Positions 2,541 to 25,395 of a stretch of 64,000 nt of DNA are shown here, one piece after another. A model generated the notes under the pieces. The model had not been told where the DNA came from. It saw nothing but the letters and a program-made list of their open reading frames with translations, and made no database searches. The DNA is from a virus (Duplodnaviria; Heunggongvirae; Uroviricota; Caudoviricetes). Both the position numbers and the translations under genes were made by a program. Location of the stretch: IMG/VR virus record IMGVR_UViG_3300029615_000411, positions 119,874-183,873 of that record. One strand, given 5' to 3'. The first letter of the stretch is position 1; the number at the start of each line of letters is the position of its first letter.

Positions 2541-2566
2541 ATTTTCGATTTCCTCCTTTTTGGGAA

Positions 2567-4392: not shown

Positions 4393-4406
4393 CCTATTTA
4401 CTCCTT

Positions 4407-4718
4407 TCACCAATTCTCGTCCGCAAAGCTCTCATTGCGGTCAACGATGATATCCACATCCAGTGGTGTAATTTTACCCAGACCGTAATTCAAGAAGAAC
4501 GAGCCGGGAATGTCATCGACATCGCCCCAGTTCCAGCAACCACAGTTAATTTCAAGCTGTCGTTTGCCTTCGTCCGTCTTGAGATAATCTTTGATTGCGC
4601 CGCGCAGGACGCTTTCCGGGTCATGGATTTGCTCCGGATTATAGCTAAACTGAATCAGTGTGCATTCCACTGCACGGTCAACAATCTCATTAGCAACAAT
4701 TGTAAAAACCTTTGTCAT
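4407..4718 (-). CDS. hypothetical protein (about 103 aa)
   Basis: GAGGAGG RBS before ATG 4718 (MTKVFTIV...). Confidence 0.45.
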   Translation of the reverse strand: MTKVFTIVANEIVDRAVECTLIQFSYNPEQIHDPESVLRGAIKDYLKTDEGKRQLEINCGCWNWGDVDDIPGSFFLNYGLGKITPLDVDIIVDRNESFADENW

Positions 4719-5389: not shown

Positions 5390-6187
5390 TTACAGCAAAC
5401 TCATCTCTGCACGATACGCATTGGCGTCGTAGCCCCAGATATTACAAGCAAAATCGATTGCTGCGTTACCTTTGCTGGGATAACCGTCGTCAACAAAATC
5501 TCCTTTGCAAAGCGCATACCAGCCACAATTACTTCCGATATCCTCATCCGCGTATTTTACACGAATATTGGCGTGTGGAAATTTACGGCTCAGTTCGACA
5601 ATGGCGCATGCAGGTGTATTCCAAGGGGTTTTAAAATTGATGGCAATTTTCGTATCATTTATTCTACGGATATTCACATCAAAAACATCCCACTTTACGC
5701 CCCAGTTTGCGACACGCCAATAATACCATGAAGCATATCCATATTTTACGGCATTTTCCAAAGCACGCTCCGCTACAGTATCGAACTCTTCGACATTATA
5801 GGGGATACGTTTCAGGTTGATGAGTTTGCTATCTTTCACATGTTCCAGTTTGGAGCGAGCTTCCGCAGCTTCCTTGCAAACACCAACCATATCTGATGCA
5901 GTAAGTTTTTCCTTCCTGTGCAGGAGAAAAGTTTCTCTGCAAATAGCCTTTCTTACGTTTTCCGGATACTTCTCCGGGTCAATTCCATATTTATTTACGG
6001 CCGCCCATGCGAGCATCCTGTCACATGGCGATACGATTTGCAGTGATTCCGGCATAGGAACAACAGACTGAAGCGAAAAATCTTTTTCGCCATCATCGTC
6101 TTTTCCCTTGACACGATTCAGAAAATCCTCCAACTCTGACTGAGAATTGAAAGAAACAGACATGATATTCATGATATTGTTTGCCAT
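5390..6187 (-). CDS. hypothetical protein (265 aa)
   Basis: ATG 6187 with AAGGAG RBS at 7 nt spacing. Confidence 0.5.
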   Translation of the reverse strand: MANNIMNIMSVSFNSQSELEDFLNRVKGKDDDGEKDFSLQSVVPMPESLQIVSPCDRMLAWAAVNKYGIDPEKYPENVRKAICRETFLLHRKEKLTASDMVGVCKEAAEARSKLEHVKDSKLINLKRIPYNVEEFDTVAERALENAVKYGYASWYYWRVANWGVKWDVFDVNIRRINDTKIAINFKTPWNTPACAIVELSRKFPHANIRVKYADEDIGSNCGWYALCKGDFVDDGYPSKGNAAIDFACNIWGYDANAYRAEMSLL

Positions 6188-8384: not shown

Positions 8385-9047
8385 TTATGCGAGCATGGGA
8401 TATATTTCTTTCTTTACCGCCCTCATAAGAGCGGCAGCATGTGCGGCGTTTTGTGCATTGCCAACACCTGCGCGAGATATTTTTGGATTCACACGCTCAA
8501 TGAAATTTTTCTTATACGGAGCAGAAATGCTCCTTGCAGCATCGATAATCTGTTTCATGTTTTCAGCGTCGATTTTTTGCTGAACGCATAATTTTTGTAA
8601 CCGTGTGCAAAAAGCGTCTTTGTTGTCCCGTACAGAAGTAGAATGATTTTTTGTTTCTTTATGTGGGATGACTGCCTCACAGGCTATCCGTTTAACGCTT
8701 AACCCTTTACTGCACATGGTCTGAATAAGCCCGTCATATCCCTTGTCTGCCGACACGATGATATAATTGCTTTTCTTTCCTGTTGTGCAAAGACTACCAA
8801 GTTTAGCAACAACGTGGAAATCCATGCTGTTTTTCCCTGCATTGGAGACGCAGAACTCTACTTGGTTGACTGGGTACTTTGCCAGAAAAACCTGCAATTC
8901 TTTAAGTGACATGTATGTGGCTTCCGGACCGATGAAGATAATCAGCTTGTCCTTTTTGGTTTTAAAATGCACTACATTTAGCCATTTTTTTTGGACATTC
9001 TCGGTATCTATCAGCCAAACGGTTCGAGTGCGGCTCACACATTTCAC
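8385..9047 (-). CDS. NYN-domain (LabA-like) putative RNase; GTG start overlapping upstream stop as GTGA
   Basis: WLIDTENV ... NAGKNSMDFHVVAKLG ... IIVSADKGYDGLIQ resembles NYN motifs; GTG at 9047 overlaps TGA of the 9044..9340 gene. Confidence 0.5.
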   Translation of the reverse strand: MKCVSRTRTVWLIDTENVQKKWLNVVHFKTKKDKLIIFIGPEATYMSLKELQVFLAKYPVNQVEFCVSNAGKNSMDFHVVAKLGSLCTTGKKSNYIIVSADKGYDGLIQTMCSKGLSVKRIACEAVIPHKETKNHSTSVRDNKDAFCTRLQKLCVQQKIDAENMKQIIDAARSISAPYKKNFIERVNPKISRAGVGNAQNAAHAAALMRAVKKEIYPMLA

Positions 9048-9340
9048 CCCCACACTTCGGTGACTTTTCTGGGGATTCCGTGCTTGTCGATACACTGCCG
9101 GTAAATTGTAAACTTACTGTTCGGGTGCGCCTTCATATAGTCAGCGCGTGCCGCGTCCGTGTTCGCAATCAGTAGATTTTTATCGGCAATAAGAACGCTT
9201 TCCCATCCGGAATCGAGAAGCGTACTGGCAACATCTTTGAAAGATACGTCTGCAGGCGTATCGCACTTACAAACACCTCGTGCGATAGGATGCGCAGTGG
9301 CAATGATTTTTGCTGCCGTCATCACAGTCTCGTAACTCAT
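9044..9340 (-). CDS. hypothetical protein (98 aa)
   Basis: AGGAGG RBS before ATG 9340. Confidence 0.5.
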   Translation of the reverse strand: MSYETVMTAAKIIATAHPIARGVCKCDTPADVSFKDVASTLLDSGWESVLIADKNLLIANTDAARADYMKAHPNSKFTIYRQCIDKHGIPRKVTEVWG

Positions 9341-10496: not shown

Positions 10497-10814
10497 TTAA
10501 TCTCTGTGATAGCGTTGCATCATACCGAACATAGCCGCAAGCGCCAATGCAAGGTAGATGTAAGTGTATCCCTTTTCAATCATGTTCAGAATCACGATGG
10601 TAAAGCTCGAAAAAGCACCACAATAAAAAGCGGCACCAAGTTTATCGACCAAAAACATCAACATCTGGGCAACGACTGCCGCAGGAACAAGAAGCTTGAG
10701 ACGCTTGGCCTCAATGATTCCGTCCCAGTCAAGAACAGCAATGAAGCTGGCTCCCATGCAGATGACCCAAACAAAAGCGAAAATAAGGGTTGCTGTGTCA
10801 AAAAAGTTACTCAT
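10497..10814 (-). CDS. small 3-TM membrane protein, paralog A; holin-like topology, function unproven
   Basis: GGAGG 8 nt before ATG 10814; about 50% identical to the next gene; ends KRYHR. Confidence 0.45.
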   Translation of the reverse strand: MSNFFDTATLIFAFVWVICMGASFIAVLDWDGIIEAKRLKLLVPAAVVAQMLMFLVDKLGAAFYCGAFSSFTIVILNMIEKGYTYIYLALALAAMFGMMQRYHRD

Positions 10815-10869
10815 ATCAGTTACCTCCAAAATTACTGATGGTTTACGGGTTTATGGACATCGAATCGCA

Positions 10870-11184
10870 TTATCTGTGATAGCGCTTTGTCATGCCAAAC
10901 ATAGCTGCAACCATAATCGCCAAATATGCGTACAAATACAAGTTCTCAATCATTCCAAGAACTGAAATTGTAAGGCTGGCGAACATACCGCAATACAGAA
11001 CAGCACCAATTTTTTTGATGATGAACAGCGTGGCTTGCGCAATGATGGCGACAACGAGAAAAACTTTGATGTATTTAGCCTCAAATAAACCATCCCAATC
11101 GATGGCAAGGAAGATACAAGCCCCCACAGCGAGAGCCCAAACCAAAGCAGCAACAGATGCAACAGCGTCAAAGAAGCTTAACAT
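10870..11184 (-). CDS. small 3-TM membrane protein, paralog B (tandem duplicate)
   Basis: GGAGG 8 nt before ATG 11184; DWDG, AKxxK and MFGMxxRYHR conserved with paralog A. Confidence 0.45.
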   Translation of the reverse strand: MLSFFDAVASVAALVWALAVGACIFLAIDWDGLFEAKYIKVFLVVAIIAQATLFIIKKIGAVLYCGMFASLTISVLGMIENLYLYAYLAIMVAAMFGMTKRYHR

Positions 11185-11237
11185 AGCGAATACCTCCATG
11201 TTTTAAATAGGTTAATGTTCGGACATCTATATAAACA

Positions 11238-11273
11238 GCAAAAAGCCGCCAATGGGACAATCCACTGGCGGCT
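11238..11273 (-). terminator. hairpin plus T-tract after sortase operon / promoter E (GCCGCCAGTGG...CCATTGGCGGC TTTTTG)
   Basis: GC-rich stem plus T5. Confidence 0.55.
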
Positions 11274-11324
11274 CAGTTGCCGATTGCAATAATACAGTTA
11301 AATCATTTGATTTATGTTATGTCT

Positions 11325-11362: not shown

Positions 11363-12334
11363 TCAGAAGACTTCGTCAAGTTTTGCACATACAATAAAAC
11401 GAGTATCGTAATTATCACTGCCTGAACAGGTGGACAAAATCAAAACCTTATCATTCAATCCAACTTCTGTGGCATACTGATTGTAAGAGTAAGCTTTCAT
11501 ACTTGCAATCTCTGTCAGGAAATACGAATCATCCGGATTCGCAATGGTATAACTTGGGTCAATAGGATAATCGGCAACAGCAAAGATTTTCCATCGTGTC
11601 TGTTGTTCACCCAAAGTAAGATAAATATACCGATGTTCCTTTGCAAAGTTGACATCGCGGAAGTATTTCAAAACACTGAATTTCTTGTGCATACTGTTTC
11701 CGTTGCTATGTCCAAAAATAACAGTTACTCTGTACATGTCATCAACATTGCTGACATTCCATTCGGAGGGAACAAAATAAGCGCCCCAGATACTTTCCCT
11801 ATCGAACTCATTGTGAGTCAGGTAATAATCATCGTCTGTGGGATGCTGCAAAATGGGCTCATCTGTAACATCAACGCCGGGAACGGTTAAGTAACCAACG
11901 GTGTTTTTGGAATACGCTGGCTTTGGTGTCGGTTCCGGTTCTGAATCACTCTCACTTGAATTAGAAGACGGGATAAGAATCGAGGGAGTAGAAACGGGTT
12001 CTTCTACATCGTCGGAGATGTTTCCTGTCTCATATGCAGGGATATGATAGTAATCATACGTCTTCCATCCAATATAGCCAATCATGGCAATAAGAACGAT
12101 GCAGATTACGACCAACAAAACTGTCCAGATGGAAAATCGCCGTTTCTCTTTGTCCTCTGACGCGTCCATCGCATCCATCGATTCATTGTCATCCTCGTCA
12201 TGACTTGCCTTTTGATGAGGGAAGTTTTCACCAGTTCCATCATCCTCATCATTTGGAATGTAATTGTACGCACCAAGTTCCTGCTCGAAATGTTCTTCTT
12301 CAGGCAGTGGTGGAATAATAGGTGTTTTTGCCAT
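11363..12334 (-). CDS. sortase family transpeptidase, class-B-like, N-terminal TM anchor
   Basis: Catalytic LILSTC motif, His in TVIFGHS, conserved Arg in TRFIV; TM RRFSIWTVLLVVICIVLIAMIGYIGW; last gene of the secY operon. Confidence 0.75.
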   Translation of the reverse strand: MAKTPIIPPLPEEEHFEQELGAYNYIPNDEDDGTGENFPHQKASHDEDDNESMDAMDASEDKEKRRFSIWTVLLVVICIVLIAMIGYIGWKTYDYYHIPAYETGNISDDVEEPVSTPSILIPSSNSSESDSEPEPTPKPAYSKNTVGYLTVPGVDVTDEPILQHPTDDDYYLTHNEFDRESIWGAYFVPSEWNVSNVDDMYRVTVIFGHSNGNSMHKKFSVLKYFRDVNFAKEHRYIYLTLGEQQTRWKIFAVADYPIDPSYTIANPDDSYFLTEIASMKAYSYNQYATEVGLNDKVLILSTCSGSDNYDTRFIVCAKLDEVF

Positions 12335-12345
12335 AATACATCACC

Positions 12346-13509
12346 TTATTCAGCTGCGGCAGACCGCTCGTACACATCAATGCAGTAGTTGCCCATAATC
12401 TTGTTGTACATGCACTCCTGTGCCAAAGGACCTGCCCCATAGGTATCAACGGCGTTATCATAGTTACTGCCAATATAAGCTTTCACTTCATCGACAGACG
12501 GTTTATAGTCCTGTTCCTCTGCCAGATACTGCGCAACAAGGCTCAGTAAAACATTTTCTTCCGTCTGACTACGAAGACTTTCTGAATACTCCTCCGAGGT
12601 CTTATAATTGCTGTATGTCTGAACGAATGTCTCCAAGTCCATATTGTAGGCAGTTGCTTCGTTTTCGACATACTTCAAGTTGGTTTCAAGACTCAGGATG
12701 ACAAGGTCTGTCGTATCCTTTTTGAGTTTTACATTGTCAATGAAATACTGTTCAATCTCATTCTGAATCTTATTCATACGAAGATTCTCTTCAACATATT
12801 CACGAAGCAGGTCTACTGTAGTTACAGCAGTGCCGTCTTGCAGCTTGTAGCCACTCATGATACCGGCAACATCAGCATCTGTCATGCTATATTGAGAAAT
12901 TTTATTAAGCGTTACATGGAAAACAGCTTCCTTGTTGGCGAGTTCGATAGTCTGCTCGCCTGTAGTTCTATCTGTTGTACTGCTATATCCATCAGGGAAT
13001 GTTACCGTAACATCAAACGAATCCCCCGTGTTATGCCCGACGATTTGCTCTTCAAATCCGTCAATAAAGGTATTGGAACCGAGTTCCAAATCGTAGTCTT
13101 CTGTTGTTCCACCGGTAAAAGCAACACCATCAACCGTACCCTCATAGTCAATGTTCACAACATCGCCTTCCTGTGCGGCGCGGTCTGTTACCTCTGTCGT
13201 CAGCTTGTAATTGGACTGAAAATAATCCAACTCGCTTTGAATCTCCTCGTCTGTAACGGCGTATACATCTTTGCTGACCGTATACTTCTTATAATCCTTG
13301 GGCATCTTTATGTATTTGGACGCAGTCACATCACGAAAATACCCGTCATCATCAAGACCGAGGTCATACTCAACAGCGGAAGCTGTTTCGGAGGTGGCTG
13401 TTTCCGCAGTCTCAGATGCACTTGTATCGGCCGTATCTTTACTGCACGCGGTCAATGCAATACATGCAGCACTGATGACCGCCAGAATCATTTTTGCGTT
13501 TTTCTTCAT
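12346..13509 (-). CDS. lipoprotein with FKBP-type PPIase / trigger-factor-like domain; candidate extracytoplasmic foldase
   Basis: MKKNAKMILAVISAACIALTAC signal plus lipobox; GDVVNIDYEGTVDGVAFTGGT...LELGSNTFIDGFEEQIVGH is the trigger-factor/FKBP PPIase signature; AAAGGAG RBS. Confidence 0.65.
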   Translation of the reverse strand: MKKNAKMILAVISAACIALTACSKDTADTSASETAETATSETASAVEYDLGLDDDGYFRDVTASKYIKMPKDYKKYTVSKDVYAVTDEEIQSELDYFQSNYKLTTEVTDRAAQEGDVVNIDYEGTVDGVAFTGGTTEDYDLELGSNTFIDGFEEQIVGHNTGDSFDVTVTFPDGYSSTTDRTTGEQTIELANKEAVFHVTLNKISQYSMTDADVAGIMSGYKLQDGTAVTTVDLLREYVEENLRMNKIQNEIEQYFIDNVKLKKDTTDLVILSLETNLKYVENEATAYNMDLETFVQTYSNYKTSEEYSESLRSQTEENVLLSLVAQYLAEEQDYKPSVDEVKAYIGSNYDNAVDTYGAGPLAQECMYNKIMGNYCIDVYERSAAAE

Positions 13510-13565
13510 GAAAATCTCCTTTATAAAAAGACCCCGGCAGACAGGTTGCCTACCGGGGCAGTATT

Positions 13566-13817
13566 TTAAACGAACAGGAACGGAACGTGAAGCAACAGAG
13601 CGTATGCCGCATCCATAATGCCAATAATAACGGCGGATACAGCACTCACAACAAGAACTGCTCCAGTTCGATGGAGCGTGTTGTGCATACTCGGCCAAGT
13701 CACATTTTTGGGTGCAACCAAATTGTGAAGCTTCTTAGGCGTGCTCTTGACGAAAGAAGGAATTGCCTTCACGAAATTCGCAATAGCCGTTCCTACCTTT
13801 TTCAGTTTATCTTTCAT
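13566..13817 (-). CDS. secE: SecE-like preprotein translocase subunit (accessory copy)
   Basis: KNVTWPSMHNTLHRTGAVLVVSAVSAVIIGIMDAAYALL parallels SecE KKVxWPxxKE...T.VV..V....D; ATGA overlap with upstream secG-like gene. Confidence 0.55.
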   Translation of the reverse strand: MKDKLKKVGTAIANFVKAIPSFVKSTPKKLHNLVAPKNVTWPSMHNTLHRTGAVLVVSAVSAVIIGIMDAAYALLLHVPFLFV

Positions 13818-14068
13818 GCCGCACCTCCTACTCCGGTTACTACGAACATGATGATTGCGATAACAAGCAGAATAGCTGTACATACAGCAACCAGTTTATT
13901 TGCGGACGTTTTCGTGCTGTCTTTAGCATTCGAGCGCATTGTATCACTGATTCCGGTGATAACACTAAGACTGTTCTTGTCGGCCTTATCCATGGAAAGC
14001 GTAACCGCACAAACCAGAACAGAAACCAACAGAATCAAGATGCACAGAATGATTTCATAAATTGCCAT
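13814..14068 (-). CDS. secG: SecG-like translocase subunit (accessory copy)
   Basis: 84 aa, two TM with Gly/Ser-containing loop (LSVITGISDTMRSN...) as in SecG; immediately downstream of secY, translationally coupled to secE-like. Confidence 0.45.
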   Translation of the reverse strand: MAIYEIILCILILLVSVLVCAVTLSMDKADKNSLSVITGISDTMRSNAKDSTKTSANKLVAVCTAILLVIAIIMFVVTGVGGAA

Positions 14069-14083
14069 TGTGTTGCCCTCCCG

Positions 14084-15424
14084 TCAATTCAAGAAACCCT
14101 TGTGATGGCGAACCACCAAATGGCTGTTAAGAGAATCGATAACTTCAAGCGTAACACCTGTGACAATCAACAGACTGGTACCGCCAAAGTGCATGTTCAG
14201 ACCTGTAACCGCAGTTGCCAAGATAGGCACACATGCAATAACCGAAAGAACAAATGCTCCCGAACCGGCGAGAGAATGGCAAGCATTGCGCAAATAATCA
14301 CTGGTAGCTTTGCCTGCTCGAATACCGGGGATACTGCCGCCGTTCTTGCGCAGGTTGTTTGCCATTTCGATGGGGTCGAATGTGATGTCGATGTAGAATA
14401 AGTTGAATGCGAAAATCAGGGCTACATACGCAACATCATAAATCCAATTCCGCGAATTCCAAGATGCCAGCGCCATATACAGGCTGGGGTGCTTGTTGTA
14501 ATCGAGGAACATCGTCACGAGAGACGGCATACTGCAAATGGTGGACGAGAAAATAATAGGCATAACACCCGACATAATCAGTTTGATGGGGATATAACTG
14601 GACTGACCAGTGGATGCTTTGTTCCCCACATTTTTACCGGCATACTGAACAGGAACGCGGCGCTCTGCATCGCTTGCGAAAACGACATAGAAGGTGGCCG
14701 CCAAAACAAAGAGGATGACGCCGGGAATCATCAGATAATACCACCATCCATTTTCTTTGCCCATTGCAATAGAGTTCTGGAACAACGAGATGACAGCATC
14801 CCATCTGGAAATGATACCGATAAAGATGATAAGGGAAATACCGTTGCCAATACCTTTTTCGTCAATCAGCCATCCAAGCCAGATGACGATTTGAGAACCA
14901 GCAGTCAGAATGGCAATAACAGTAATGGCTTCCACGACCTGCGAAATGCCGGAAGTGTATTTCATCGCACCGTAGTTCTTCATAATAAAGAAGTACCCGA
15001 TAGCTGTTACGACCGCCAAACCACAACCAACATACTGCGTGATTTTATTGATTTGCTTCTGCCCGCCGATGTCCTTGCTGATTTCTTCCAGTTTCGGAAT
15101 CGCAACAGTCAAAAGCTGGATGATGATGCTTGCGTTGATGTATGCAGATACGCCAATCGCAAATACCGCACACTGAGAAAGTGCGCCACCGGAAACCAGA
15201 TTGTAATAATCCAGTACAGAGGTGCTTCCGAACATAGTCTGAAGCGCAGCGGTGTTTACGAACGGAATCGTAATACCGCAACCCAGACGATAAATCAGAA
15301 GACAAAGGATGGTGAAGAGAATCTTGTTGCGAACATCATCCACCATCAGCTTCTGGAAGATGGTGCTGTTCGAATAAGACTTTTTGAGTTTCGGCTTTTT
15401 CGCCGGATTTTTAATGTTGTCCAA
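14084..15424 (-). CDS. secY: SecY family protein-conducting channel, second non-ribosomal-context copy (SecY2-like)
   Basis: GITIPFV, SQIVIWLGWLIDEKGIGNGISLIIF, VPVQYAGK, YIPIKLIMSGVMPIIFSSTI, NLRKNGGSIPGIRAGKATSDYL, FGGTSLLIVTGVTLEV; TTG start with GGAAGGAG RBS; no rplO/adk/map neighbours. Confidence 0.85.
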   Translation of the reverse strand: MDNIKNPAKKPKLKKSYSNSTIFQKLMVDDVRNKILFTILCLLIYRLGCGITIPFVNTAALQTMFGSTSVLDYYNLVSGGALSQCAVFAIGVSAYINASIIIQLLTVAIPKLEEISKDIGGQKQINKITQYVGCGLAVVTAIGYFFIMKNYGAMKYTSGISQVVEAITVIAILTAGSQIVIWLGWLIDEKGIGNGISLIIFIGIISRWDAVISLFQNSIAMGKENGWWYYLMIPGVILFVLAATFYVVFASDAERRVPVQYAGKNVGNKASTGQSSYIPIKLIMSGVMPIIFSSTICSMPSLVTMFLDYNKHPSLYMALASWNSRNWIYDVAYVALIFAFNLFYIDITFDPIEMANNLRKNGGSIPGIRAGKATSDYLRNACHSLAGSGAFVLSVIACVPILATAVTGLNMHFGGTSLLIVTGVTLEVIDSLNSHLVVRHHKGFLN

Positions 15425-15448
15425 TGCTTACTCCTTCCGCGACTGAGA

Positions 15449-15724
15449 TTATCGAGCAAAGAAAGCAACGATGATTCGCATCAGAAAGGCTACAACGGCC
15501 AACTTCGTTGCAAGCCACATGAACCAATCGAGTTTGTCGATACCTTCGTCGAATACATTTGTTGCGGCAGCATCTTTTTTGTTACTGTCGCAATCCCCGT
15601 CAACATGGTTTTTCTTGATTTTGTTGCGATTAAGCACAAACAAAGTTCGAAACAAAGCCCATGTTGCAATACAGAATCCGTATACGATTAGAAGCTCGAT
15701 ACAGAAACTGTGCAAAGACGACAT
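15449..15724 (-). CDS. small 2-TM membrane protein; possible extra translocon subunit
   Basis: 91 aa, two hydrophobic helices; TAATG overlap with upstream gene; directly precedes secY. Confidence 0.4.
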   Translation of the reverse strand: MSSLHSFCIELLIVYGFCIATWALFRTLFVLNRNKIKKNHVDGDCDSNKKDAAATNVFDEGIDKLDWFMWLATKLAVVAFLMRIIVAFFAR

Positions 15725-16401
15725 TAAGCGGATGCGCCGTTGGCGTCAGGAGTCGTATTGGAGGCGGTCTCGGCAACGGCCTCTACCGGAGTTTCCGTGA
15801 CAGTCTCTGCAGGAGAAGTGATATCCCCGGTGATTGTGGGGACGTTGGCATCTTCTGCGACCGACTCATTGACGGGCGCTTCAATAACCGCATCCTTGAC
15901 TCCATCAGCAGTCACTTTCTTTGCTGCGATTTTTGCGAAGTGCTCATTGCGCTTTTCACGGCAAGCCTTGCAGCGGGTGGGGAACTTGTAGTCATGGACG
16001 ACATACCAGTACAGCTCGCGATTGGTAAACTGCAGCTTCTGACCGCAATCTGCGCAGGTGTCTTCCAGACCGATGTTATCCAGCCCGCGCTTCACGAAGT
16101 CGCGATGAATTTTGCGGCATTCCGGGCAGCGGTTCGGCAGAGAATAACCGTGACTCTCGAAGAAATCGCGGTCACGATTGGTGATGTCGAATTCATGACC
16201 GCAGTCAACGCACTTGCGGGTCTCAAACACCTCATTGCTCTTTGCATCAGCTTCCTTGCGAGCTTCATCCTCTGCGCGGCGTTTTGCGAAATCGTCACGC
16301 ATACGACACTCGCGGCACAGCACCTCGCTCTCATTGGCGGTGCTGAACGGCTTGTTGCACTTCTCACAGGTCTTGCGGAACTTCTTTGCTGCATCTTTCA
16401 T
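15724..16401 (-). CDS. zinc-ribbon protein with five CxxC...CxxC units and acidic tail
   Basis: CEKCNKPF..CREC, CVDCGHEF, CPECRK, CADCGQK, CKACREK. Confidence 0.5.
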   Translation of the reverse strand: MKDAAKKFRKTCEKCNKPFSTANESEVLCRECRMRDDFAKRRAEDEARKEADAKSNEVFETRKCVDCGHEFDITNRDRDFFESHGYSLPNRCPECRKIHRDFVKRGLDNIGLEDTCADCGQKLQFTNRELYWYVVHDYKFPTRCKACREKRNEHFAKIAAKKVTADGVKDAVIEAPVNESVAEDANVPTITGDITSPAETVTETPVEAVAETASNTTPDANGASA

Positions 16402-16444
16402 GGTTTAAGTCTCCTTTATGGTAAAAAATTAAAATAATGATTGA

Positions 16445-16960
16445 TTAGGCGTTGGGACCAGAAAAAGAATCGATAATTTCATCGATGTGGACGTTCAAGT
16501 CGGACTTGTCATCATCTTTCTTGGCGGGCTGTTTTACAGGAACAACGATATCAGGCTCATTCTTCTTTTCCTCCGCCGCCTTTTCTTCAACAGGCTTCTC
16601 TGCGGATTCATCCTTGGCCTCAGTGACCTCGGACGCGCTATCGGAATCCACCTTGCCGGATTCATCCTTATCGGCATCAGGATTCGCCTCGGTTGCCTTA
16701 TCAGTATCCTTTTTCGTCTCATCATGCTTGCGTTCTACGCGGATGACATGAACGGCAGCCACGGGCGCGTGATGAATATCATCGATGCGCTCATCACAAC
16801 CGCAGCACTCATCACAGTCATCACAATCGTCGTCATCATAAAGATAACCGTCATCCTCCAACTCTTTGATGACCTCGTTCTTCACATACTTGGTCGTGAG
16901 TTTCAGGGCAACGGCTGCAACAGTGGCGGCACCAATAACGGACAGAATGTTCTTCTTCAT
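16445..16960 (-). CDS. secreted or membrane-anchored acidic protein with poly-Asp/Cys cluster (DDDDCDDCDECCGCDE)
   Basis: N-terminal signal/TM MKKNILSVIGAATVAAVALKL; first gene after class II promoter P1. Confidence 0.5.
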   Translation of the reverse strand: MKKNILSVIGAATVAAVALKLTTKYVKNEVIKELEDDGYLYDDDDCDDCDECCGCDERIDDIHHAPVAAVHVIRVERKHDETKKDTDKATEANPDADKDESGKVDSDSASEVTEAKDESAEKPVEEKAAEEKKNEPDIVVPVKQPAKKDDDKSDLNVHIDEIIDSFSGPNA

Positions 16961-17004
16961 AAATTTCTCCTTTGACTAAAAAGCAATGTTTCGCTTGGAA
17001 TGTT

Positions 17005-17036
17005 TATATTATACCACATAAATATAATGTGGTCAA
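17005..17036 (-). promoter_or_regulatory. class II promoter P1 (TTGACC-17-TGgTATAATATA) for the secY-sortase operon
   Basis: Reverse complement TTGACCacattatatttatgtggTATAATata; spacer palindrome ACCACATaaatataaATGTGGT. Confidence 0.5.
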
Positions 17037-17097: not shown

Positions 17098-17751
17098 TTA
17101 TCGAATACCGTATCCCATATCTTGTCGCACGAGTTTTATTTCTGAAGTGTTTTTCAAACTATCGGGGAACATTTCTTTAGCGTAATCCTGATAGCGTTTC
17201 GTAACATACTTTACGCCGAGTTCTTCCGGTTTGATATCTGCTGCGGTTTTTCTGATACGTTGATTCGATGCGCGAGAAGAACATTTCTTGCATAAGCAAA
17301 GCGCGACATTAGAAATGCCTTCATTCCCGCAGACGGCGCATTTTGCATGCGTCTTATCTCTATCCCATTCCTTTATTTCTTTTCCGTTTTCCGGGTCTAT
17401 TACAAGGCGGTTGCGCTTACAGCGGCGCACATAGAACACGCTTTGGCAGCAGGCAACGCATAAGCCTAAATCTTTGCGGTAGTGAGAAGAGAGACCATCT
17501 GTGACTTCACCGCACAAAAGGCATTTATTTTGAGAAACAATATTCTTGTACTTATTAGCCTTGTTCTCTAATAGCTTTTTTATGATTTCACCGGTCTTAT
17601 CGGGTTCAGGAGGATACGCATCCCATCCGTTTACAGGAAAAAAGCTGGAAAAGTCGTTCCATTCATCATCAGAAAACGAACAGCCAACAGGTTTGAGTAT
17701 CTTAGGGAGTTTATTGGACCATACTTTTTCTGCATTAGACTTCTTCGGCAT
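17098..17751 (-). CDS. Cys-rich (multi CxxC) hypothetical protein
   Basis: AAGGAGGAG RBS before ATG 17751; CLLCGE, CVACC, CAVCGNEG, CLCKKC. Confidence 0.5.
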   Translation of the reverse strand: MPKKSNAEKVWSNKLPKILKPVGCSFSDDEWNDFSSFFPVNGWDAYPPEPDKTGEIIKKLLENKANKYKNIVSQNKCLLCGEVTDGLSSHYRKDLGLCVACCQSVFYVRRCKRNRLVIDPENGKEIKEWDRDKTHAKCAVCGNEGISNVALCLCKKCSSRASNQRIRKTAADIKPEELGVKYVTKRYQDYAKEMFPDSLKNTSEIKLVRQDMGYGIR

Positions 17752-17782
17752 ACAGGCTCCTCCTTTGGAAGGAGTGACAGAA

Positions 17783-19207
17783 TCAATATTCTGCCACGAT
17801 GTTATCATCGGGTTTCTTCTTTATCAAAGAGTCCCCAAATCGATTTACATGTTCTTTCGGCGGTTCAATGACCTCGATGTCGGTATCCTCCACTTTTTCG
17901 ATTTCGTCAGAGGAATCGTCGTCTTTTTCATTCTGAACCTTATCCGATGGATTGGTGATTTGTGCATCCTCTTTTGCAACATCTGAAAGCAAATCAAATG
18001 TCAACTGAGAATTTGAGGACGCTGGTTTCTTTTCTCTTTTCTTGGTTGTTTGGCGTTTTTTGGAAGTTCTTTTTGACTTTACAGGTTCATTGGAACCACC
18101 ATCGCTTGTTTTTGCACTTGCTGTGTTTGAATCAGCAACCGCATCCGCTGAAGCCTTATCCTTGTTTGTTTCTGTGACGGGTTCCTGAACCTTTTTGTTT
18201 TTTGATAAATCATCTTTGTCGGATTGTTTTGATTCCAAAGCAGAAGACTCTTGTGCGTTTGAACCTTGTTCTTCTTGCACAACAGATTCTTCCTTTACTG
18301 GAATCTTAGCAGTTCCCTTCTGCAAAAGACCGTCGATTGCTACAACGGCCTCAGACTTCTTTTCTTCGGACTCTGCCTTCTGTACTGCACGGCGAATCGC
18401 CTCGGTTTTTTCTTTCTTTTCTTTTTCTGCTGATGCGGTATTTTCGCTTTCCTTTATCTCAGCAGGCACATTCATGTCAGATTTCGAATTCCACCACTTC
18501 TCAATAGTAGTAATCGTTCTTTCTACTAATATTATACCACAAAATTTGTGGTTTGACAACTTACGGCTCGGCACAAAGCATACAATACCGCACAGAGAAA
18601 CAACCAGTAAAACAATAGCAAGTCCTGCATCAAAAATAAAACAGATAAACGACACCGGAATCAGCAGCTCGCAGATACCGCGCATGATAAATACTGTTTT
18701 ATCTCCTTGGTCTTTTCGGTTTTGCATAAAACTGTCTCTCCCCTTCTGCGGGTGATAAGACAAACCACTTGACAAGCCGTTTGTTGCCCAATCACAAGGT
18801 ATCTCGTAAGTCTTTTCTCCTAAGCTGTCTGTGTACTGAATTACAGCAATATCAAAATACTCACCATTCTTCTGTGATGCCAAGAATGCGCGTAAGAATT
18901 CATTTCCAACAGACCGCGCAGGAACAATAATCGTTTCGATGCCGTCAGAATCTTTTGCGGCAATATCTACTACATAGGTATCATCTTCACCGCGCCATAC
19001 GTTCTGCACAATACCGCGCACCAATATACCGCGCTTATGAACACGCCTTCCCATAAAAGTAAAGGAGTTTTCAGAATACCACGTGTTTACCATGCAATAC
19101 GCAGCAATAATAAGCAATGTAAGGTACTTAACATTTATGGAGATAATGCTTAAAGAAAAAATATACGGAACGAGCATCAGCAAGACGAATGATACAAAGC
19201 TATTCAC
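17783..19207 (-). CDS. membrane protein with long K/E/S-rich disordered C-terminal half; contains an internal consensus promoter
   Basis: GTG start overlapping upstream TGA; TM helices in N-terminal half; low-complexity acidic/lysine tail. Confidence 0.45.
18529..18560 (-). promoter_or_regulatory. class II promoter P2 inside the 474-aa ORF (TTGTCA-17-TATAAT, extended -10)
   Basis: Reverse complement TTGTCAaaccacaaattttgtggTATAATatt; perfect palindrome ACCACAAA/TTTGTGGT in spacer. Confidence 0.45.
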
Positions 19208-19878
19208 TTTGAATCACCGCCTTCGCCAAATCCGTCCAAAAAGACAAGATTTTCTTTTGTGTGTTTCTTTTTTTGTTCAATAACTTCTTTTTCAGCTTCT
19301 TGTTTGACTTTATCGTACGCTTCCAACGGGCTCATGGAAGGTACTGATTTCTGCGTATCAGCAGGGACAATAGTATCATCGTTTTTGACGGCTGTCGTTA
19401 CACGACTGCAGGTTACGAGATTTCTGTCATTAAACGCAGTTACGCCATCCTCATTTGATTTAAAAATAAAGTCATACATAGCACCAACGAAGAAAGAGTT
19501 TTTAACGTTTTTCTTTGATTCGTTGACGCTGAGGAAAAAATCGTATTTTCCGTTTTTGTCGATAAACTCTCCATCCTCATTGACAGGGATGATTCGATAG
19601 GTTGAAATCTGCTGGCGAATCATATTTTTGCTGGACTCATCGGATACAACAATTCCCTTAACAGTCTTATACCGTTCATTTTTTTCATCATTATGAATCT
19701 CATAAATTTGAAAAATAAAATAAGCGGCGCACATCAAGCCGATAAGAAGAATCTTCCACTCCTGCATTACAACAACACCGAAAATAGAAGCAATCAAGAA
19801 CAGAATAGCGATAAGCCCATTCTTCACATACATAGATGTGATAAGAGATTTGCAATCCGGATGATAAATCTTAGACAT
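19204..19878 (-). CDS. membrane protein (2 TM near N-terminus)
   Basis: ATG 19878 after AAGGCGGTG. Confidence 0.45.
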
Positions 19879-19879
19879 T

Positions 19880-20866
19880 TTATTCACCGCCTTCTACGTT
19901 AGAATCTTTATCTGCGCTGTTTGTCGTACTGGCAGACTGTAAAATGCTTGCACCCTGCTCATTCAGAACATCCTCGATTGTCTTGTCGCGTAGTTTAATG
20001 CTGGACAAGACGACATCGTAAGACTCCCCAGACGAAGTAGTTACCCGTGCGATATATTGAATGGTCGTATCCCCCGCAAGCAATGCGCCATCTATTGTTT
20101 GCTTCTGACGATTTCCGTCCTTATCTTCGGTCTCAACCACATACATATCCTGTGACGCTTTTTGTGCAGATACAGAAGACGTCATAACAATATCTCCGGC
20201 CTTCATATCAGAGGTCGCGAACTTGTTTACGATAGAACCTGTTCTATCCACAAAGAACACGGGAGTATCCTGCTGCATCTTCCCGTCGCCGTCTACGAAA
20301 TGCGAACCGCATAAGGATTCGTATTCGTTGACACTCAAAGTCTTATAGCTGAGTTCTGAATCCTCGATGGTATCCCCGGAAGGAATATCCACATTTACGA
20401 CAGCAACTTTATATTCTCCGGTAAGCTGTCCACTGATTTGGACCCAGTTTGTGTATACGAAGAAGCCAATAGCGATGGCGACAACGGCAACAATGAACAT
20501 TGCGATACCGATATTACGCTTGTTATTGTTTTTAATGATTTGTGCCTGTTCTAGGATTTCCTTACTGGCATGCTTAGTATCTTTAAGCGTCTGGTTTGCT
20601 TCATCCAGTGTATCGCTTGTCTTTGTAAGCACTTCGTAAGCTTTGGTCTCTCTATGGCCGACATTCACATTCAGCCCTTTTGCGCCATTGTTGTTGGCAG
20701 ACTTTGCGTTGTTGTATTCGGCGCGAAGCGTTTCCACAACGGAATCGTCAAGCGTCATCTGTTCCCCGTTAGGCAGAATTACCGTACCATCATCATAGAC
20801 ATCGAAAACACGTTCCTTGCCTTCATACATGGCGCGTACCTGACCGATAACATAATGTTCGTTCAT
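19880..20866 (-). CDS. bitopic membrane protein, possible SAF/CpaB-like extracytoplasmic domain
   Basis: AAGGGGTG RBS before ATG 20866; TM IGIAMFIVAVVAIAIGFFVY; VAVVNVDIPSGDTIEDSEL resembles SAF domain. Confidence 0.4.
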   Translation of the reverse strand: MNEHYVIGQVRAMYEGKERVFDVYDDGTVILPNGEQMTLDDSVVETLRAEYNNAKSANNNGAKGLNVNVGHRETKAYEVLTKTSDTLDEANQTLKDTKHASKEILEQAQIIKNNNKRNIGIAMFIVAVVAIAIGFFVYTNWVQISGQLTGEYKVAVVNVDIPSGDTIEDSELSYKTLSVNEYESLCGSHFVDGDGKMQQDTPVFFVDRTGSIVNKFATSDMKAGDIVMTSSVSAQKASQDMYVVETEDKDGNRQKQTIDGALLAGDTTIQYIARVTTSSGESYDVVLSSIKLRDKTIEDVLNEQGASILQSASTTNSADKDSNVEGGE

Positions 20867-20880
20867 GTTTATCACACCCC

Positions 20881-21375
20881 TTATCTCTTGTACTTTTCGA
20901 ACACCTTGCGCGAAGGAGCTCTCGGACCACACATTTTGCACTTTTTACTCTGCTCAACATAATCAATGAGCATCTGACGTTCCCATGCAAGGTATTCGTC
21001 CATATTTTTTTCTTTCCATGAATCGAATTTGCCGTATGAAACACCGAGATAACTGGCGAATATGCTGACAGCATTCAGCATATAATCATTCGGGATTACA
21101 ACCCTTTTCCCGTCCAGATTGTAAGCATGTCCCGTAGTGATTTTATTTCTTGTCTGTCCTATCTTCATTCGCCTCGTTTCTGTGTTCTTCTTTACCTGAG
21201 TTTCTCTTCTTAGGGTACTGCAGGACTTGCAATATTGAGTATTTTTGGCGGTAGAATAAAAAATCCTGCCGCATTCCTTGCATTTGCGTTCGTACGTTAT
21301 GGTTTTAGGAGTTGTACTTTGTTTTTGGGTTTCTGTATGGTTGCTGTTTTCAGAAGTACAATGATTCCGAGCCAT
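20881..21375 (-). CDS. zinc-finger (CxxC) hypothetical protein
   Basis: CKECGRIF...CKSC, CKMCGPR. Confidence 0.45.
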   Translation of the reverse strand: MARNHCTSENSNHTETQKQSTTPKTITYERKCKECGRIFYSTAKNTQYCKSCSTLRRETQVKKNTETRRMKIGQTRNKITTGHAYNLDGKRVVIPNDYMLNAVSIFASYLGVSYGKFDSWKEKNMDEYLAWERQMLIDYVEQSKKCKMCGPRAPSRKVFEKYKR

Positions 21376-21391
21376 AATCTGTACCTCTTAT

Positions 21392-22453
21392 TTAAACGCG
21401 AGCGTCAATCAGGCAATTCAGCAGCCCGTTCGCGTCACAGCCAAACAATAAGCATCCGAACACACCAATGGCATGTCCTTTTCTGGTAGAGAATGTTCCT
21501 GCCGTAACACCAAGATGCCCGGCAATCTGCTCATCTGTCCAGTTGTACTTTTTCCCCTCAATCATTGCAAGGATAACGTCATAATAACGTTGACCAAGCG
21601 GAAACTGTTTCATGATTTCGACAGCCCCTCGTATGAGTTTCACATACTCCACAATGAGATAGGCATCGCTTCTGTTTTTATCAGAAACTTTGATTTTACT
21701 CAAATCTTCGTACGAAGAAGACCCAAGCAGTTTCATGGCGGGGTCCTTTGACCGTGAGGCACGATACAGAATACGCGTGTATTCCGTAAGAAGCAGCGGA
21801 ACATTATGATAAAGGCTTGCTTCTTCTACCCCGTCCACATCACTGCTTGTCATCAGGATTTTATAATATTCCTTGATAACACTACCTGCTGTATTGTAAA
21901 CGGATTCAATGCACCGCTCGCAATACTTCATGATTTTGATGCGTCCATTCTTCGGAAGAACGGCGGGATTCAAAAAGCAATCAAACACCTCCCGCATGCT
22001 GGAACAATAATCGACTTCGTACAAGAGTTCTAACCGCGACTCCTCAATGGCGTCAAGAAGCATCTGACAACTTTCGAAGTATTCTTTGCGTTTCCTGAAA
22101 TGCAAAGACTCTTCCTCAATATTCGGAGCCAGCCAGCTCTGAATACGGCGCAGACGGGAAATGGCTTCGACATCGCACATCTCATCGTCGTGAACGTTTT
22201 CACAGTTCTGCATCATGACATCAAGGTCTTGTGCCTGCATCATCCATTTGAGTGCCGGATACAATATCATCAGAACAGCCGCTTCTTTCAGTTCCGGCCG
22301 CTCTTCCACAACACGGTTTACGCACTTTGTCAGCACATAAGAATTGGGGATGTCTCCGCCAAAACTTCTACGCAGAACAATGTTGTCCTGCATAATAGCA
22401 TCGAGCAATGCGTAAAGCTGCTGTTCTTGGGCTTTATTCAATGCTTCGGACAA
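21392..22453 (-). CDS. hypothetical regulator with sigma-70 region-4-like C-terminal HTH; TTG start
   Basis: WTDEQIAGHLGVTAGTFSTRKGHAI resembles sigma region 4.2; AAAGGAGGGAAGG RBS before TTG. Confidence 0.35.
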   Translation of the reverse strand: MSEALNKAQEQQLYALLDAIMQDNIVLRRSFGGDIPNSYVLTKCVNRVVEERPELKEAAVLMILYPALKWMMQAQDLDVMMQNCENVHDDEMCDVEAISRLRRIQSWLAPNIEEESLHFRKRKEYFESCQMLLDAIEESRLELLYEVDYCSSMREVFDCFLNPAVLPKNGRIKIMKYCERCIESVYNTAGSVIKEYYKILMTSSDVDGVEEASLYHNVPLLLTEYTRILYRASRSKDPAMKLLGSSSYEDLSKIKVSDKNRSDAYLIVEYVKLIRGAVEIMKQFPLGQRYYDVILAMIEGKKYNWTDEQIAGHLGVTAGTFSTRKGHAIGVFGCLLFGCDANGLLNCLIDARV

Positions 22454-22893
22454 TTTGCCTTCCCTCCTTTCGCAAGATTCGTTTCAATATGAATATGCGT
22501 GTTATCATGTACGGTTTCGGACAAAAGGCCACTATAATGGAACATGACCTTGTACTTCTTTGCGCTACAGGCATATTTGAGTCGCGCCCAAAGGTCTTTG
22601 TTATGACTGGGCTCAGTATCGCTGTCCTCTACGCCAAAAGAAGCACCAGTACGCGCAATCGCATTATCGCTGCTGAATACGACAATCTGAGACCCTGTTG
22701 GCAAACCGATGTTCTCGATAATGCGGCAGAGCTCTGCCAATTTCAGCCTTGTATAACCAATTGGAGTAGCCATAAAATAAGTATCCTTCTGTCTATCCGA
22801 CTTGGCGGAAGGATTTACGACAAAACTGTGAACGCACACCTCCCCATTCAGTTCCGGCGTTTTGACGATATCAAGATAAATAATAGCGGCCAT
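22438..22893 (-). CDS. hypothetical protein (151 aa)
   Basis: GGGGGAG RBS before ATG 22893. Confidence 0.45.
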   Translation of the reverse strand: MAAIIYLDIVKTPELNGEVCVHSFVVNPSAKSDRQKDTYFMATPIGYTRLKLAELCRIIENIGLPTGSQIVVFSSDNAIARTGASFGVEDSDTEPSHNKDLWARLKYACSAKKYKVMFHYSGLLSETVHDNTHIHIETNLAKGGKANCPKH

Positions 22894-22919
22894 AAATCGC
22901 TCCCCCTAATGTACAGTAA

Positions 22920-22950
22920 TTGACTTTTTCGCGTTTTTGTGGTATTATAT
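22920..22950 (+). promoter_or_regulatory. plus-strand class II-type promoter (TTGACT-17-TGgTATTATATA) for the 23048 regulator; divergent region with an 11-bp inverted repeat at about 22966-23012
   Basis: ttgactttttcgcgtttttgtggtattatata; TTATATTACCG...CGGTAATTATATA. Confidence 0.45.
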
Positions 22951-23047
22951 AAGTGCAGTAAAGGTATAATTTATATTACCGGTTACAAAAATTGTTGTTT
23001 TCGGTAATTATATAAACTTGTCTGTTAAACCAAGCAGGAGGGAAATT

Positions 23048-23710
23048 ATGAGTAACAATATCAACAACAACCACGAATCGGTAGAGAATATCTTCAATGC
23101 TTTCTTGATGGGAGGCAAAATGAACACTGCTTCCAAGCAAGAACGAGCAAAAATTGTAGATACCTTTATGGAACAGGCAAAATCTTGCTTTGTTGACACG
23201 GAGAATACCGTGAAATATCTAAATGTTCTGATGGAACGGACGAGACTCCGTTATGGGTTTACCGCTGATGAATTTGCAGCAATGTTGGGATACAGCAGCA
23301 CTGCCGCTTACAACAAGACATTCATGCAACCAAATGCAAATTTTGGAACTGTAGTATTTCCTTATGTGGTTCAGTTTTGCTATCTGTTTGGCTATAATTT
23401 GTCAATTCCTGATTCCGTGTCTGCTCCGCAAACAGTGGCAGACCTATACTCTTTGGAACTGGCTTCTTTTCTGATTTCTCTTGGCCCCGATGCAATGGAT
23501 GATATTTCAAGAACATTGGTCGGTGCCGAATACCTTGACCCGAATTTAAGAAAAACAAGTTCTCAAATACTTTCAAAGGCAAAGAAATACTTCTATGGTA
23601 ATGATGGTGAAGCGTTACCCAATGAAGTTCAGTACCGCAACAGATTAGATAACGCTGAGAATAAGATTAAGCGTCTCGATAAAATAGAGAAAGCCAATCA
23701 CGACAAATGA
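23048..23710 (+). CDS. HTH-containing putative transcriptional regulator (plus strand)
   Basis: AGGAGGG RBS 6 nt before ATG 23048; GFTADEFAAMLGYSSTAAYNKT helix-turn-helix-like; own TTGACT-17-TATTAT promoter. Confidence 0.55.
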   Translation: MSNNINNNHESVENIFNAFLMGGKMNTASKQERAKIVDTFMEQAKSCFVDTENTVKYLNVLMERTRLRYGFTADEFAAMLGYSSTAAYNKTFMQPNANFGTVVFPYVVQFCYLFGYNLSIPDSVSAPQTVADLYSLELASFLISLGPDAMDDISRTLVGAEYLDPNLRKTSSQILSKAKKYFYGNDGEALPNEVQYRNRLDNAENKIKRLDKIEKANHDK

Positions 23711-24175
23711 TTAGCCGCCAAACATATCGGCTAACTGTAATGCAAGCATCGCTTCTTCTGAAATAGGAGGCGGTGCTTCTTCTGTTTTTGGAGTTGTGTT
23801 GATGGTTTGTGTGTCTGTAATGTTTTGGGGGGAGTAATTTGAAGCTGGCGCAGCTACCGCAATCCCGTTTTTCTGAATGCTGCTTGTCACTGCATCTACA
23901 ATCTGAGGGATACAGCTTCTGATTTCTTCTGCTATTGTGTTTTGCAGTTCCTCTTTTAAGATGGACTGCGCTTCTTGCATCTCATGTTGTTTTGTAGCCT
24001 TGTCGATTATAGCATTTACAACCGCATCGGTTTTTCCGCCGCGTTGCAAACTGTTCAGATAATCATATACAAGTACATGATTGTCTTTGCTTAAATCAAA
24101 AACAAGTGTGGTTCGTACCGTCGTGCCAACGGTCTCTTTTTCTGTTTCATTCTTTTTGGGACGTCCACGCGGCAT
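23711..24175 (-). CDS. parR: ParR-like small DNA-binding partition adaptor (ribbon-helix-helix-like N-terminus)
   Basis: MPRGRPKK basic N-terminus then beta-alpha-alpha pattern; immediately downstream of the ParM-like gene. Confidence 0.4.
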   Translation of the reverse strand: MPRGRPKKNETEKETVGTTVRTTLVFDLSKDNHVLVYDYLNSLQRGGKTDAVVNAIIDKATKQHEMQEAQSILKEELQNTIAEEIRSCIPQIVDAVTSSIQKNGIAVAAPASNYSPQNITDTQTINTTPKTEEAPPPISEEAMLALQLADMFGG

Positions 24176-24208
24176 TCAGTGCTCACCACGCTTTCGAAAA
24201 CGGTGCTC

Positions 24209-25168: not shown

Positions 25169-25264
25169 AAAAAATCCTCCGAACGAGTCGCAATATAGTT
25201 GAAAGTACGAATTTTGGGATACTCTGCGTGATAAAATATAAGTGTCTACCAGATAACAATGGGA

Positions 25265-25395
25265 CTCACTGACTGATGCATAGCAGTTGTTAAAACGGAA
25301 AGAACAACTAATATACAACTACCTGTTGTTATCATGATACCACACATGCAGTTGTCCAGCAACGAACTTTTGTTCGCATAGACAACAAAAAAGAA
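25265..25395. promoter_or_regulatory. iteron cluster (at least 7 copies of CAGTTGT/ACAACTG-like 7-8-mers, both orientations) between the ParM-like gene and the XRE gene; candidate parC centromere or operator
   Basis: agCAGTTGTt, gAACAACTa, tACAACTAc, cTGTTGTTa, gCAGTTGTc, tTGTTCGc, GACAACAa within about 120 bp. Confidence 0.4.

Follow-up and report, generated by a model that had tools for sequence, protein, structure and literature searches.

A SecY-SecG-SecE set with a lipoprotein foldase and a class-B-like sortase on a probable Hodor-type megaplasmid of the human gut

Introduction

Hodor elements are conjugative megaplasmids of the human gut that span 211-389 kb (average 357 kb) and are mostly filed as huge phages in databases (Yuan et al., bioRxiv 22 Feb 2026; PMC12934698). 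They carry a conserved hyp-SecY-SecG-SecE-trigger factor-sortase B region and encode two giant proteins, of 7,309-7,704 amino acids (aa) and of ~2,642 aa, which possess signal peptides as well as cell-wall sorting signals. The genes of the region and the giants are among the few genes common to two deeply diverged plasmid groups, and it was proposed that the giants probably cross the membrane through the pore that the sec operon encodes, with trigger factor as chaperone and sortases to position them (PMC12934698). A second SecY beside very large wall-anchored adhesins is also found in the accessory Sec systems (SecA2/SecY2, Asp1-3, Gtf) of streptococci and staphylococci. Here we analyzed a stretch of 64,000 nucleotides (nt) of the IMG/VR virus record IMGVR_UViG_3300029615_000411 (positions 119,874 to 183,873 of that record; hereafter the window), which encodes a Sec module with a foldase and a sortase.

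An earlier note on this DNA, made from the sequence alone, had read the module as a self-contained export, fold and anchor device for giant adhesins and had taken it to be undescribed. The observation proved correct in its main points and the reading sound in substance. However, the module is already known, and this functional reading has already been published: the same module, the same element family and the same functional proposal are given in PMC12934698. Our comparisons indicate that the window carries paralogues of all three channel genes, secY, secG and secE, and that this set is under strong purifying selection. With moderate confidence, we regard the window as part of a Hodor-type conjugative megaplasmid (~350 kb) of human-gut Bacillota that bears a conserved surface-display module; this grading covers jointly the observed parts and the mechanism that we propose for them.

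Results

A canonical SecY encoded with SecE and a divergent SecG

The module comprises eight open reading frames (ORFs), all on the minus strand and each at the position given for it in the earlier note. Together with the predicted signals around them they are, in the order of transcription:

17078-17057, terminator-like hairpin of the upstream gene
17008-17036, minus strand, sigma-70-type promoter (TTGACC, 17 nt, TATAAT, TG-extended -10; 11 of 12 consensus positions)
16445-16960, minus strand, protein of 171 aa; hydrophobic N-terminal segment, acidic stretch rich in Asp and Cys; lineage-specific
15724-16401, minus strand, zinc-ribbon protein of 225 aa, predicted cytosolic, with six CxxC pairs; PF13451 (zf_Tbcl) at 38.5 bits (cut-off 24)
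15449-15724, minus strand, protein of 91 aa predicted to have two membrane helices; its gene overlaps the zinc-ribbon gene by TAATG; lineage-specific
14084-15424, minus strand, secY paralogue of 446 aa with a TTG start
13814-14068, minus strand, probable divergent secG of 84 aa with two membrane helices
13566-13817, minus strand, secE of 83 aa, ATGA overlap with secG
13531-13559, minus strand, intrinsic-terminator-like hairpin with a T-run in the gap between secE and the foldase gene (13-bp stem, -28.3 kcal/mol, z = -4.1)
12346-13509, minus strand, trigger-factor-like FKBP foldase of 387 aa, a predicted lipoprotein with the lipobox LTAC
11363-12334, minus strand, class-B-like sortase of 323 aa with an acidic N-terminal tail, one membrane helix and the catalytic domain
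11243-11274, minus strand, terminator 3' of the sortase gene (-34.5 kcal/mol, z = -6.0)

The 446-aa protein is a SecY, as had been claimed. It scored 291 bits on PF00344 (cut-off 32.2) and 330.1 bits on the equivalog model TIGR00967 (cut-off 253.6), and its residues 21-445 align full length to the solved chains 3dl8, 3din and 7xha. The hydrophobic pore ring (V92, I96, I196, I200, I291 and I420) is kept, and so is the C5-loop arginine R369, which corresponds to R357 of E. coli. The label 'SecY2-like' had to be given up: on both SecY2 models (TIGR02920 and NF009082) the protein reached 146 bits, below the cut-offs of 249.6 and 353, and it is only 19% identical to SecY2 of S. epidermidis. In a neighbor-joining tree the SecY proteins of the elements formed a clade in 60/60 bootstraps, and this clade was sister to chromosomal SecY of the Gemmiger/Subdoligranulum type in 51/60. 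The nearest chromosomal SecY (49% identity) lies within the usual rpl-secY-adk-map-infA cluster. These data argue that the plasmid SecY was derived from a canonical Oscillospiraceae-type SecY and not from SecY2.

One further candidate for an element-type SecY, P0084, was rejected. Since it is 64% identical to the SecY of the window and to that of Vescimonas alike, P0084 is probably a chimeric metagenomic assembly; it groups with Vescimonas and was left out of the clade tests. We also observed a Lys-rich N-terminal extension of ~20 residues on the SecY proteins of the window and of the 90% lineage described below, which is missing from chromosomal SecY and from the most distant element lineage.

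The SecE passes both PF00584 (32.6 bits, cut-off 22.7) and TIGR00964 (30.1 bits, cut-off 27.55), in line with its first description as SecE-like. For the 84-aa protein, which had been called SecG-like, the outcome was divided. Aligned with seven relatives from other lineages, all eight members had PF03840 SecG as their top Pfam family (best E 7.7e-7), but the window protein itself remained below the cut-offs of PF03840 (18.8 bits, cut-off 29.2) and TIGR00810 (20.4 bits, cut-off 30.85). The profile of the family found no SecG among solved structures, and the family member closest to SecG had no match in plasmids by tblastn. We consider it probable, but not proven, that the 84-aa protein is a divergent SecG.

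No ribosomal-protein gene is present in the window, and rplO, adk, map and infA are absent as neighbors of secY. The adjacency of secG and secE to secY is unlike the chromosomal loci of E. coli, Agathobacter, Vescimonas, C. difficile, B. subtilis and the Gemmiger-type P0111. SecY, SecE and a divergent SecG in a non-ribosomal context bear out the earlier view that a mobile element encodes a second Sec channel here.

We compared the ratio of nonsynonymous to synonymous substitution rates (dN/dS) between the two main lineages, that is, between the window and the 90% lineage (L012 type). It was 0.045 for SecY, 0.09 for SecG, 0.08 for SecE and 0.12 for the zinc-ribbon gene, values that have to be read with synonymous sites being saturated (dS > 1.3). 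Since the ratios lie at ~0.05-0.12 between lineages, these four genes are old and constrained rather than decaying copies.

No canonical SecA found on the related elements

Except for the two giant genes, no ORF in the window is long enough to encode a SecA, and the window holds no SecA2, Asp1-3 or Gtf genes, as had been noted before. The earlier note had suggested a search for SecA2 on the rest of the replicon. A scan of IMG/VR with an alignment of SecA and SecA2 yielded 69 loci, none of which lies on the module-carrying contigs of 346 kb and 389 kb. Canonical SecA thus appears to be absent from near-complete relatives, and because no SecA was found on the element and the arginine that docks SecA and the ribosome is retained, the channel presumably uses SecA of the host.

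The same scan brought up many large 'viral' contigs (~120-360 kb; loci L043-L094) that encode SecA-like proteins with 36-45% identity to Listeria SecA, for instance L074 (3300045988_174371, 360,643 bp), L069 (319,426 bp), L052 (324,925 bp) and L051 (315,042 bp). None of them carries the SecYEG module, and they may represent another class of large elements with Sec components. On the Clostridium estertheticum plasmid pCF007-A (249 kb; L028) a gene annotated as SecA2 adjoins a transporter gene of the major facilitator superfamily; the stretch covered there was shorter than 3 kb.

A trigger-factor-like foldase with a lipid anchor

The foldase matches FKBP_C with 61 bits and TIGR00115 with 170 bits (cut-off 180.2) over model positions 108-371, and solved trigger factors match it at E = 1.8e-19 from their residues ~77-125 onwards. 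The FKBP isomerase domain and the C-terminal chaperone domain are present. As the match to trigger factor begins only at about model position 108, the N-terminal ribosome-binding domain is missing, and a lipoprotein signal peptide stands in its place. The lipobox is kept in three lineages and in chromosomal relatives, which predicts a lipid-anchored and, for this reason, extracytoplasmic protein. The former reading as an FKBP/trigger-factor-type peptidyl-prolyl isomerase (PPIase) lipoprotein is supported.

Trigger-factor-like proteins of ~380 aa that lack the N-terminal domain and are anchored by a lipid or a helix turned out to be very abundant in (gut) metagenomes, with 37-42% identity to the foldase. 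One metagenomic cluster of such anchored proteins has 10,955 members, and one relative is located among housekeeping genes. On these grounds the foldase belongs to a chromosomal family of extracytoplasmic foldases that would be functionally comparable to PrsA. PrsA is a lipid-anchored PPIase and chaperone on the outer face of the membrane that aids the folding of Sec-exported proteins in Bacillota. Searching the literature for trigger-factor-like lipoproteins outside the cytoplasm brought up nothing specific.

A class-B-like sortase and two giant surface proteins

The Pfam Sortase model did not match the 323-aa sortase at E up to 1. The solved structures that it matched, eight in total, were without exception sortase B, and its GH, TC and R motifs align with the catalytic His, Cys and Arg of 5b23; the Cys also aligns with the residue mutated in 5yfk. 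The designation 'class-B-like' is upheld by these structural matches and the aligned catalytic residues, although the class B model TIGR03064 scored 78.2 bits, below its curated cut-off of 153.75.

Two giant proteins in the window carry sortase-type sorting signals:

35992-43944, minus strand, giant 1, 2,650 aa counted from the likely start, with a Sec signal peptide, MBG domains and, at the C-terminus, NYKTG, a membrane helix and KKKK
44372-64000, minus strand, giant 2, cut by the window end, with MBG, DUF11 and DUF7507 repeats and, at the C-terminus, NKKTG, a membrane helix and HKRKK

Their genes start ~19 kb from the module, close to the 20 kb given in the earlier note. Giant 2 covers 6,542 aa in the window. 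An exact 30-mer search at the window end matched nothing, and a peptide-based search of relatives was used to extend the protein: near-identical relatives continue for 779 aa upstream to a classic signal peptide, which gives ~7,321 aa in total. The giants have signal peptides of the ordinary Sec type and no KxYKxGKxW-type signal. Among the window proteins, only the two giants have a C-terminus of this build, in which the motif precedes a membrane helix and a basic tail.

NPKTG, NPQTN and SPKTG are signals of class B sortases, and NYKTG and NKKTG resemble them. In the other main lineage the sorting motif is QAPTG and in a distant relative it is VTYTG. A strict NxKTG consensus was therefore dropped, as only the TG is constant. 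Because the signals are non-LPXTG and end in TG, they would fit a class-B-like sortase better than a class A enzyme.

Promoter, terminators and leading genes

The promoter at 17036-17008 is the best sigma-70 consensus match of the region and lies after the terminator of the upstream gene. Equivalent promoters stand directly 5' of the zinc-ribbon gene in two other lineages. Of the earlier idea of one promoter driving one operon, the promoter stood but the single transcription unit did not. The strong hairpin between secE and the foldase gene is kept in the L012 type, where the DNA is only ~75% identical, and is absent from the L006 type (59% SecY identity). In view of this conserved internal terminator and of two genes that are lineage-specific, we rejected a single eight-gene operon. 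In the metatranscriptome of the Hodor study, SecY-SecG-SecE on the one hand and trigger factor with sortase B on the other were two separate co-transcribed sets (PMC12934698). The hairpin would probably give the two halves of the module different transcript levels. Gene overlaps of the TAATG and ATGA type do exist, but they join the zinc-ribbon gene to the gene with two membrane helices and secG to secE, and not the last genes as had been stated; between the foldase and sortase genes there is no overlap.

The zinc-ribbon protein, formerly described with a five-fold CxxC motif, has six CxxC pairs by our count. Its gene is the first of the conserved core and lies directly 5' of secY in L006-type and L012-type loci. 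Comparison with solved structures gave C2H2 pattern matches only, which we judged spurious, and a literature search found no paper mentioning PF13451. For the 171-aa protein, hidden Markov model scans found no family above its curated cut-off; no DNA matching its gene is present in L012-type and L006-type loci, and no such gene was called in L005-L007. The 91-aa gene is likewise not present in L005-L007, and both genes are missing from the two other lineages. The conserved core consists of the promoter, the zinc-ribbon gene, secY, secG, secE, the hairpin, the foldase gene, the sortase gene and the terminator.

Distribution of the module

A cluster of SecY sequences at 99% identity contains 1,455 members, and dozens of clusters are 90% identical; the contigs reach up to 382 kb. 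Carriers in IMG/VR are a contig of 345,980 bp (99% SecY identity) and the L012-type contig of 389,222 bp (90%). The non-ribosomal order SecY-SecG-SecE recurs in lineages with 90, 59, 70 and 55% SecY identity, on contigs of 389, 296, 121 and 25 kb, respectively. The L006 type (59%, 296 kb) has the same order all the way from the ParM-like gene to the sortase gene. In the L014 type (70%, 121 kb) the triad stands without an adjacent foldase or sortase gene, and in the L015 type (55%) a SpaA-domain protein of >2,400 aa and a sortase are encoded ~4-7 kb upstream of the triad.

The DNA of the 5.7-kb module gave nothing useful when searched against plasmid and phage collections. PLSDB contained nothing comparable, and its matches to 'plasmid' secY of Firmicutes were housekeeping clusters. 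When the SecY protein was searched against both collections, most matches were housekeeping secY in ribosomal clusters on mislabelled records; the others were lone copies on Streptomyces plasmids. A scan of the GTDB species-representative genomes found no relative of the module.

The window type and the L012 type probably correspond to the two published Hodor groups. Based on a GC content of 0.44 outside the giant genes, we tentatively assign the window to Hodor group G2.

Other content of the window

Beyond the module and the giants, many ORFs of the window could be given no function, and the following genes were recognized:

24209-25318, minus strand, ParM/Alp7A-like actin (partition gene)
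29037-29555, minus strand, phage-type Dam methylase
31224-32759, minus strand, SPFH/flotillin protein
8385-9095, minus strand, PIN7 nuclease
3628-4413, minus strand, radical-SAM protein
5390-6187, minus strand, DUF1281_C protein
1134-2597, minus strand, 487-aa protein matching PHROG phrog_12834 (unknown function) at E = 3e-67

Ten window ORFs, nine of them large and otherwise unassigned, were scanned against PHROGs. The match to phrog_12834 was the only one, and there were zero matches to phage structural or packaging families. No tRNA genes were detected in the window, and an Rfam scan of the module region gave zero matches.

Just 3' of the sortase terminator sit two tandem genes (10497-10829 and 10870-11199, minus strand) for paralogous membrane proteins of ~110 aa that are 49% identical and have no family match. 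Two 353-aa ORFs considered as a further pair of paralogues were rejected as such. Between the ParM/Alp7A-like and the zinc-ribbon genes (17098-25318) lies a block of about eight genes without family assignment, which is syntenic with the 59% lineage (L005-L007, 133-9102). In the 90% lineage an operon for giant proteins takes the place of this block, only ~5 kb upstream of the Sec module.

Discussion

We propose that the module would function as a route for export, folding and anchoring. The plasmid SecYEG would be an extra channel that is powered by SecA of the host, may be dedicated to the giants and would carry their preproteins of 2,650 aa and ~7,300 aa, thereby sparing the essential channel of the host. 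The lipoprotein foldase on the outer face of the membrane would help the emerging chains to fold, as PrsA does, and the sortase would cleave the giants at T-G and attach them to the cell wall. With its own channel, foldase and sortase, the element would free surface display from a particular host. The adhesins may serve colonization or cell-cell contact in conjugation. If so, the complete path from ribosome to cell wall can be encoded on a mobile element for proteins of up to ~7,300 residues. This is relevant to the questions of how giant adhesins are secreted while the essential channel stays free and how plasmids with a broad host range maintain surface display from one host to the next.

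Several points weigh against this proposal. Of the plasmid hallmarks of Hodor elements (Rep_3, ParA/B/M, VirB4/D4/B6 and a MOBH-like relaxase), the window shows only a ParM/Alp7A-like gene, and those outside the window are taken from the preprint (PMC12934698). We infer, as its authors do, that the giants use the plasmid channel rather than that of the host; their signal peptides are ordinary and therefore no sequence feature enforces channel specificity. We also infer a separate housekeeping secY in the host. The L014 triad stands apart from foldase and sortase genes, and the scan for SecA relied on two conserved motifs, so that a very divergent ATPase would escape it.

Some of the same observations would suit a general secretion booster, in which the plasmid SecYEG is not specific for any cargo and raises or secures Sec capacity for plasmid and host exports alike in any Bacillota host. 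A SecY that is canonical in every feature tested, giants that enter by ordinary Sec signal peptides and the isolated triad of the L014 type are what one would expect of such a device. However, four of the five lineages encode a sortase, a foldase or a giant anchored protein next to the triad, and the preprint counts module and giants together among the few genes that its two diverged plasmid groups share (PMC12934698). We regard the booster as rather unlikely. A bolder version of our own proposal appears doubtful and earns still less of our confidence: the plasmid SecYEG would be orthogonal and cargo-dedicated while working with host SecA, the zinc-ribbon protein would act on the giant preproteins in the cytosol as a new targeting or holdase factor that fills the role of SecA2 and Asp, and the module would be a transferable cassette, present not only in the two Hodor groups but in several further families of large gut elements.

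That a jumbo phage remodels the surface of its host with its own translocon and sortase during infection is very unlikely. Relatives of 346-389 kb are catalogued as viral genomes, and the window does hold a phage-type Dam methylase and one PHROG match of unknown function. Yet the PHROG scan of ten ORFs brought up no structural or packaging family, and the window has a partition gene of the ParM/Alp7A type. Moreover, most Hodor genomes are without terminase; where a terminase was found, it was part of an inserted prophage or of a chimeric assembly. The elements also encode Rep_3, ParA/B/M and a type IV secretion system (PMC12934698).

A variant of the streptococcal and staphylococcal SecA2/SecY2 system, as a second SecY near very large wall-anchored adhesins might suggest, deserves hardly any credence: the SecY2 scores and the low identity to SecY2 of S. 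epidermidis speak against it, as do the lack of SecA2, Asp1-3 and Gtf in the window and of SecA on related contigs, and a cargo without KxYKxGKxW-type signal peptides. The housekeeping secY of an uncultured bacterium, which would pass the canonical equivalog model just as well, or an assembly artefact can practically be dismissed given the missing ribosomal neighbors, the adjacent secG and secE, the absence of the module from GTDB species representatives and the recurrence of the arrangement in dozens of independent assemblies.

Returning to the proposed export and anchoring route, several features were not found in the main text of the preprint or go beyond it: the foldase as a lipoprotein without ribosome-binding domain, the hairpin after secE, the identity of the 'hyp' gene as a conserved zinc-ribbon gene and the non-LPXTG signals of the giants (NYKTG, NKKTG and QAPTG). 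Also beyond the preprint are the lack of canonical SecA on near-complete relatives, the Oscillospiraceae-type origin of SecY and the occurrence of the triad in further lineages (59, 70 and 55%).

How does the module compare with known systems? In contrast to accessory Sec, its SecY is canonical and comes with its own SecE and SecG, and SecA2, Asp and glycosyltransferase genes are lacking. Its cargo bears signal peptides of the ordinary kind and is not rich in serine, and a foldase and a sortase are built in; the difference from the SecA2/SecY2 serine-rich systems that had been pointed out earlier is thus borne out, with the SecY2 models failed and no accessory genes in the window. Streptomyces linear plasmids such as NZ_CP109366.1 also carry a secY outside the ribosomal cluster, but this SecY is ~36% identical and the surrounding 9.3 kb contain no secE, secG, foldase or sortase gene. 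PrsA is likewise a lipid-anchored PPIase of the outer face, with a parvulin domain where the module foldase has an FKBP domain and the C-terminal domain of trigger factor. Among solved structures, the class B sortases of C. perfringens (5b23), L. monocytogenes (5jcv), C. difficile (5gyj/4ux7) and S. aureus (1ng5) are the best matches to the module enzyme, which differs from them by a long acidic cytoplasmic N-terminal extension and by having giant adhesins as putative substrates in place of substrates for heme uptake. The Hodor module, finally, agrees with that of the window in gene set and order, giant pair, element size, source databases and functional model, and there is no essential difference between the two.

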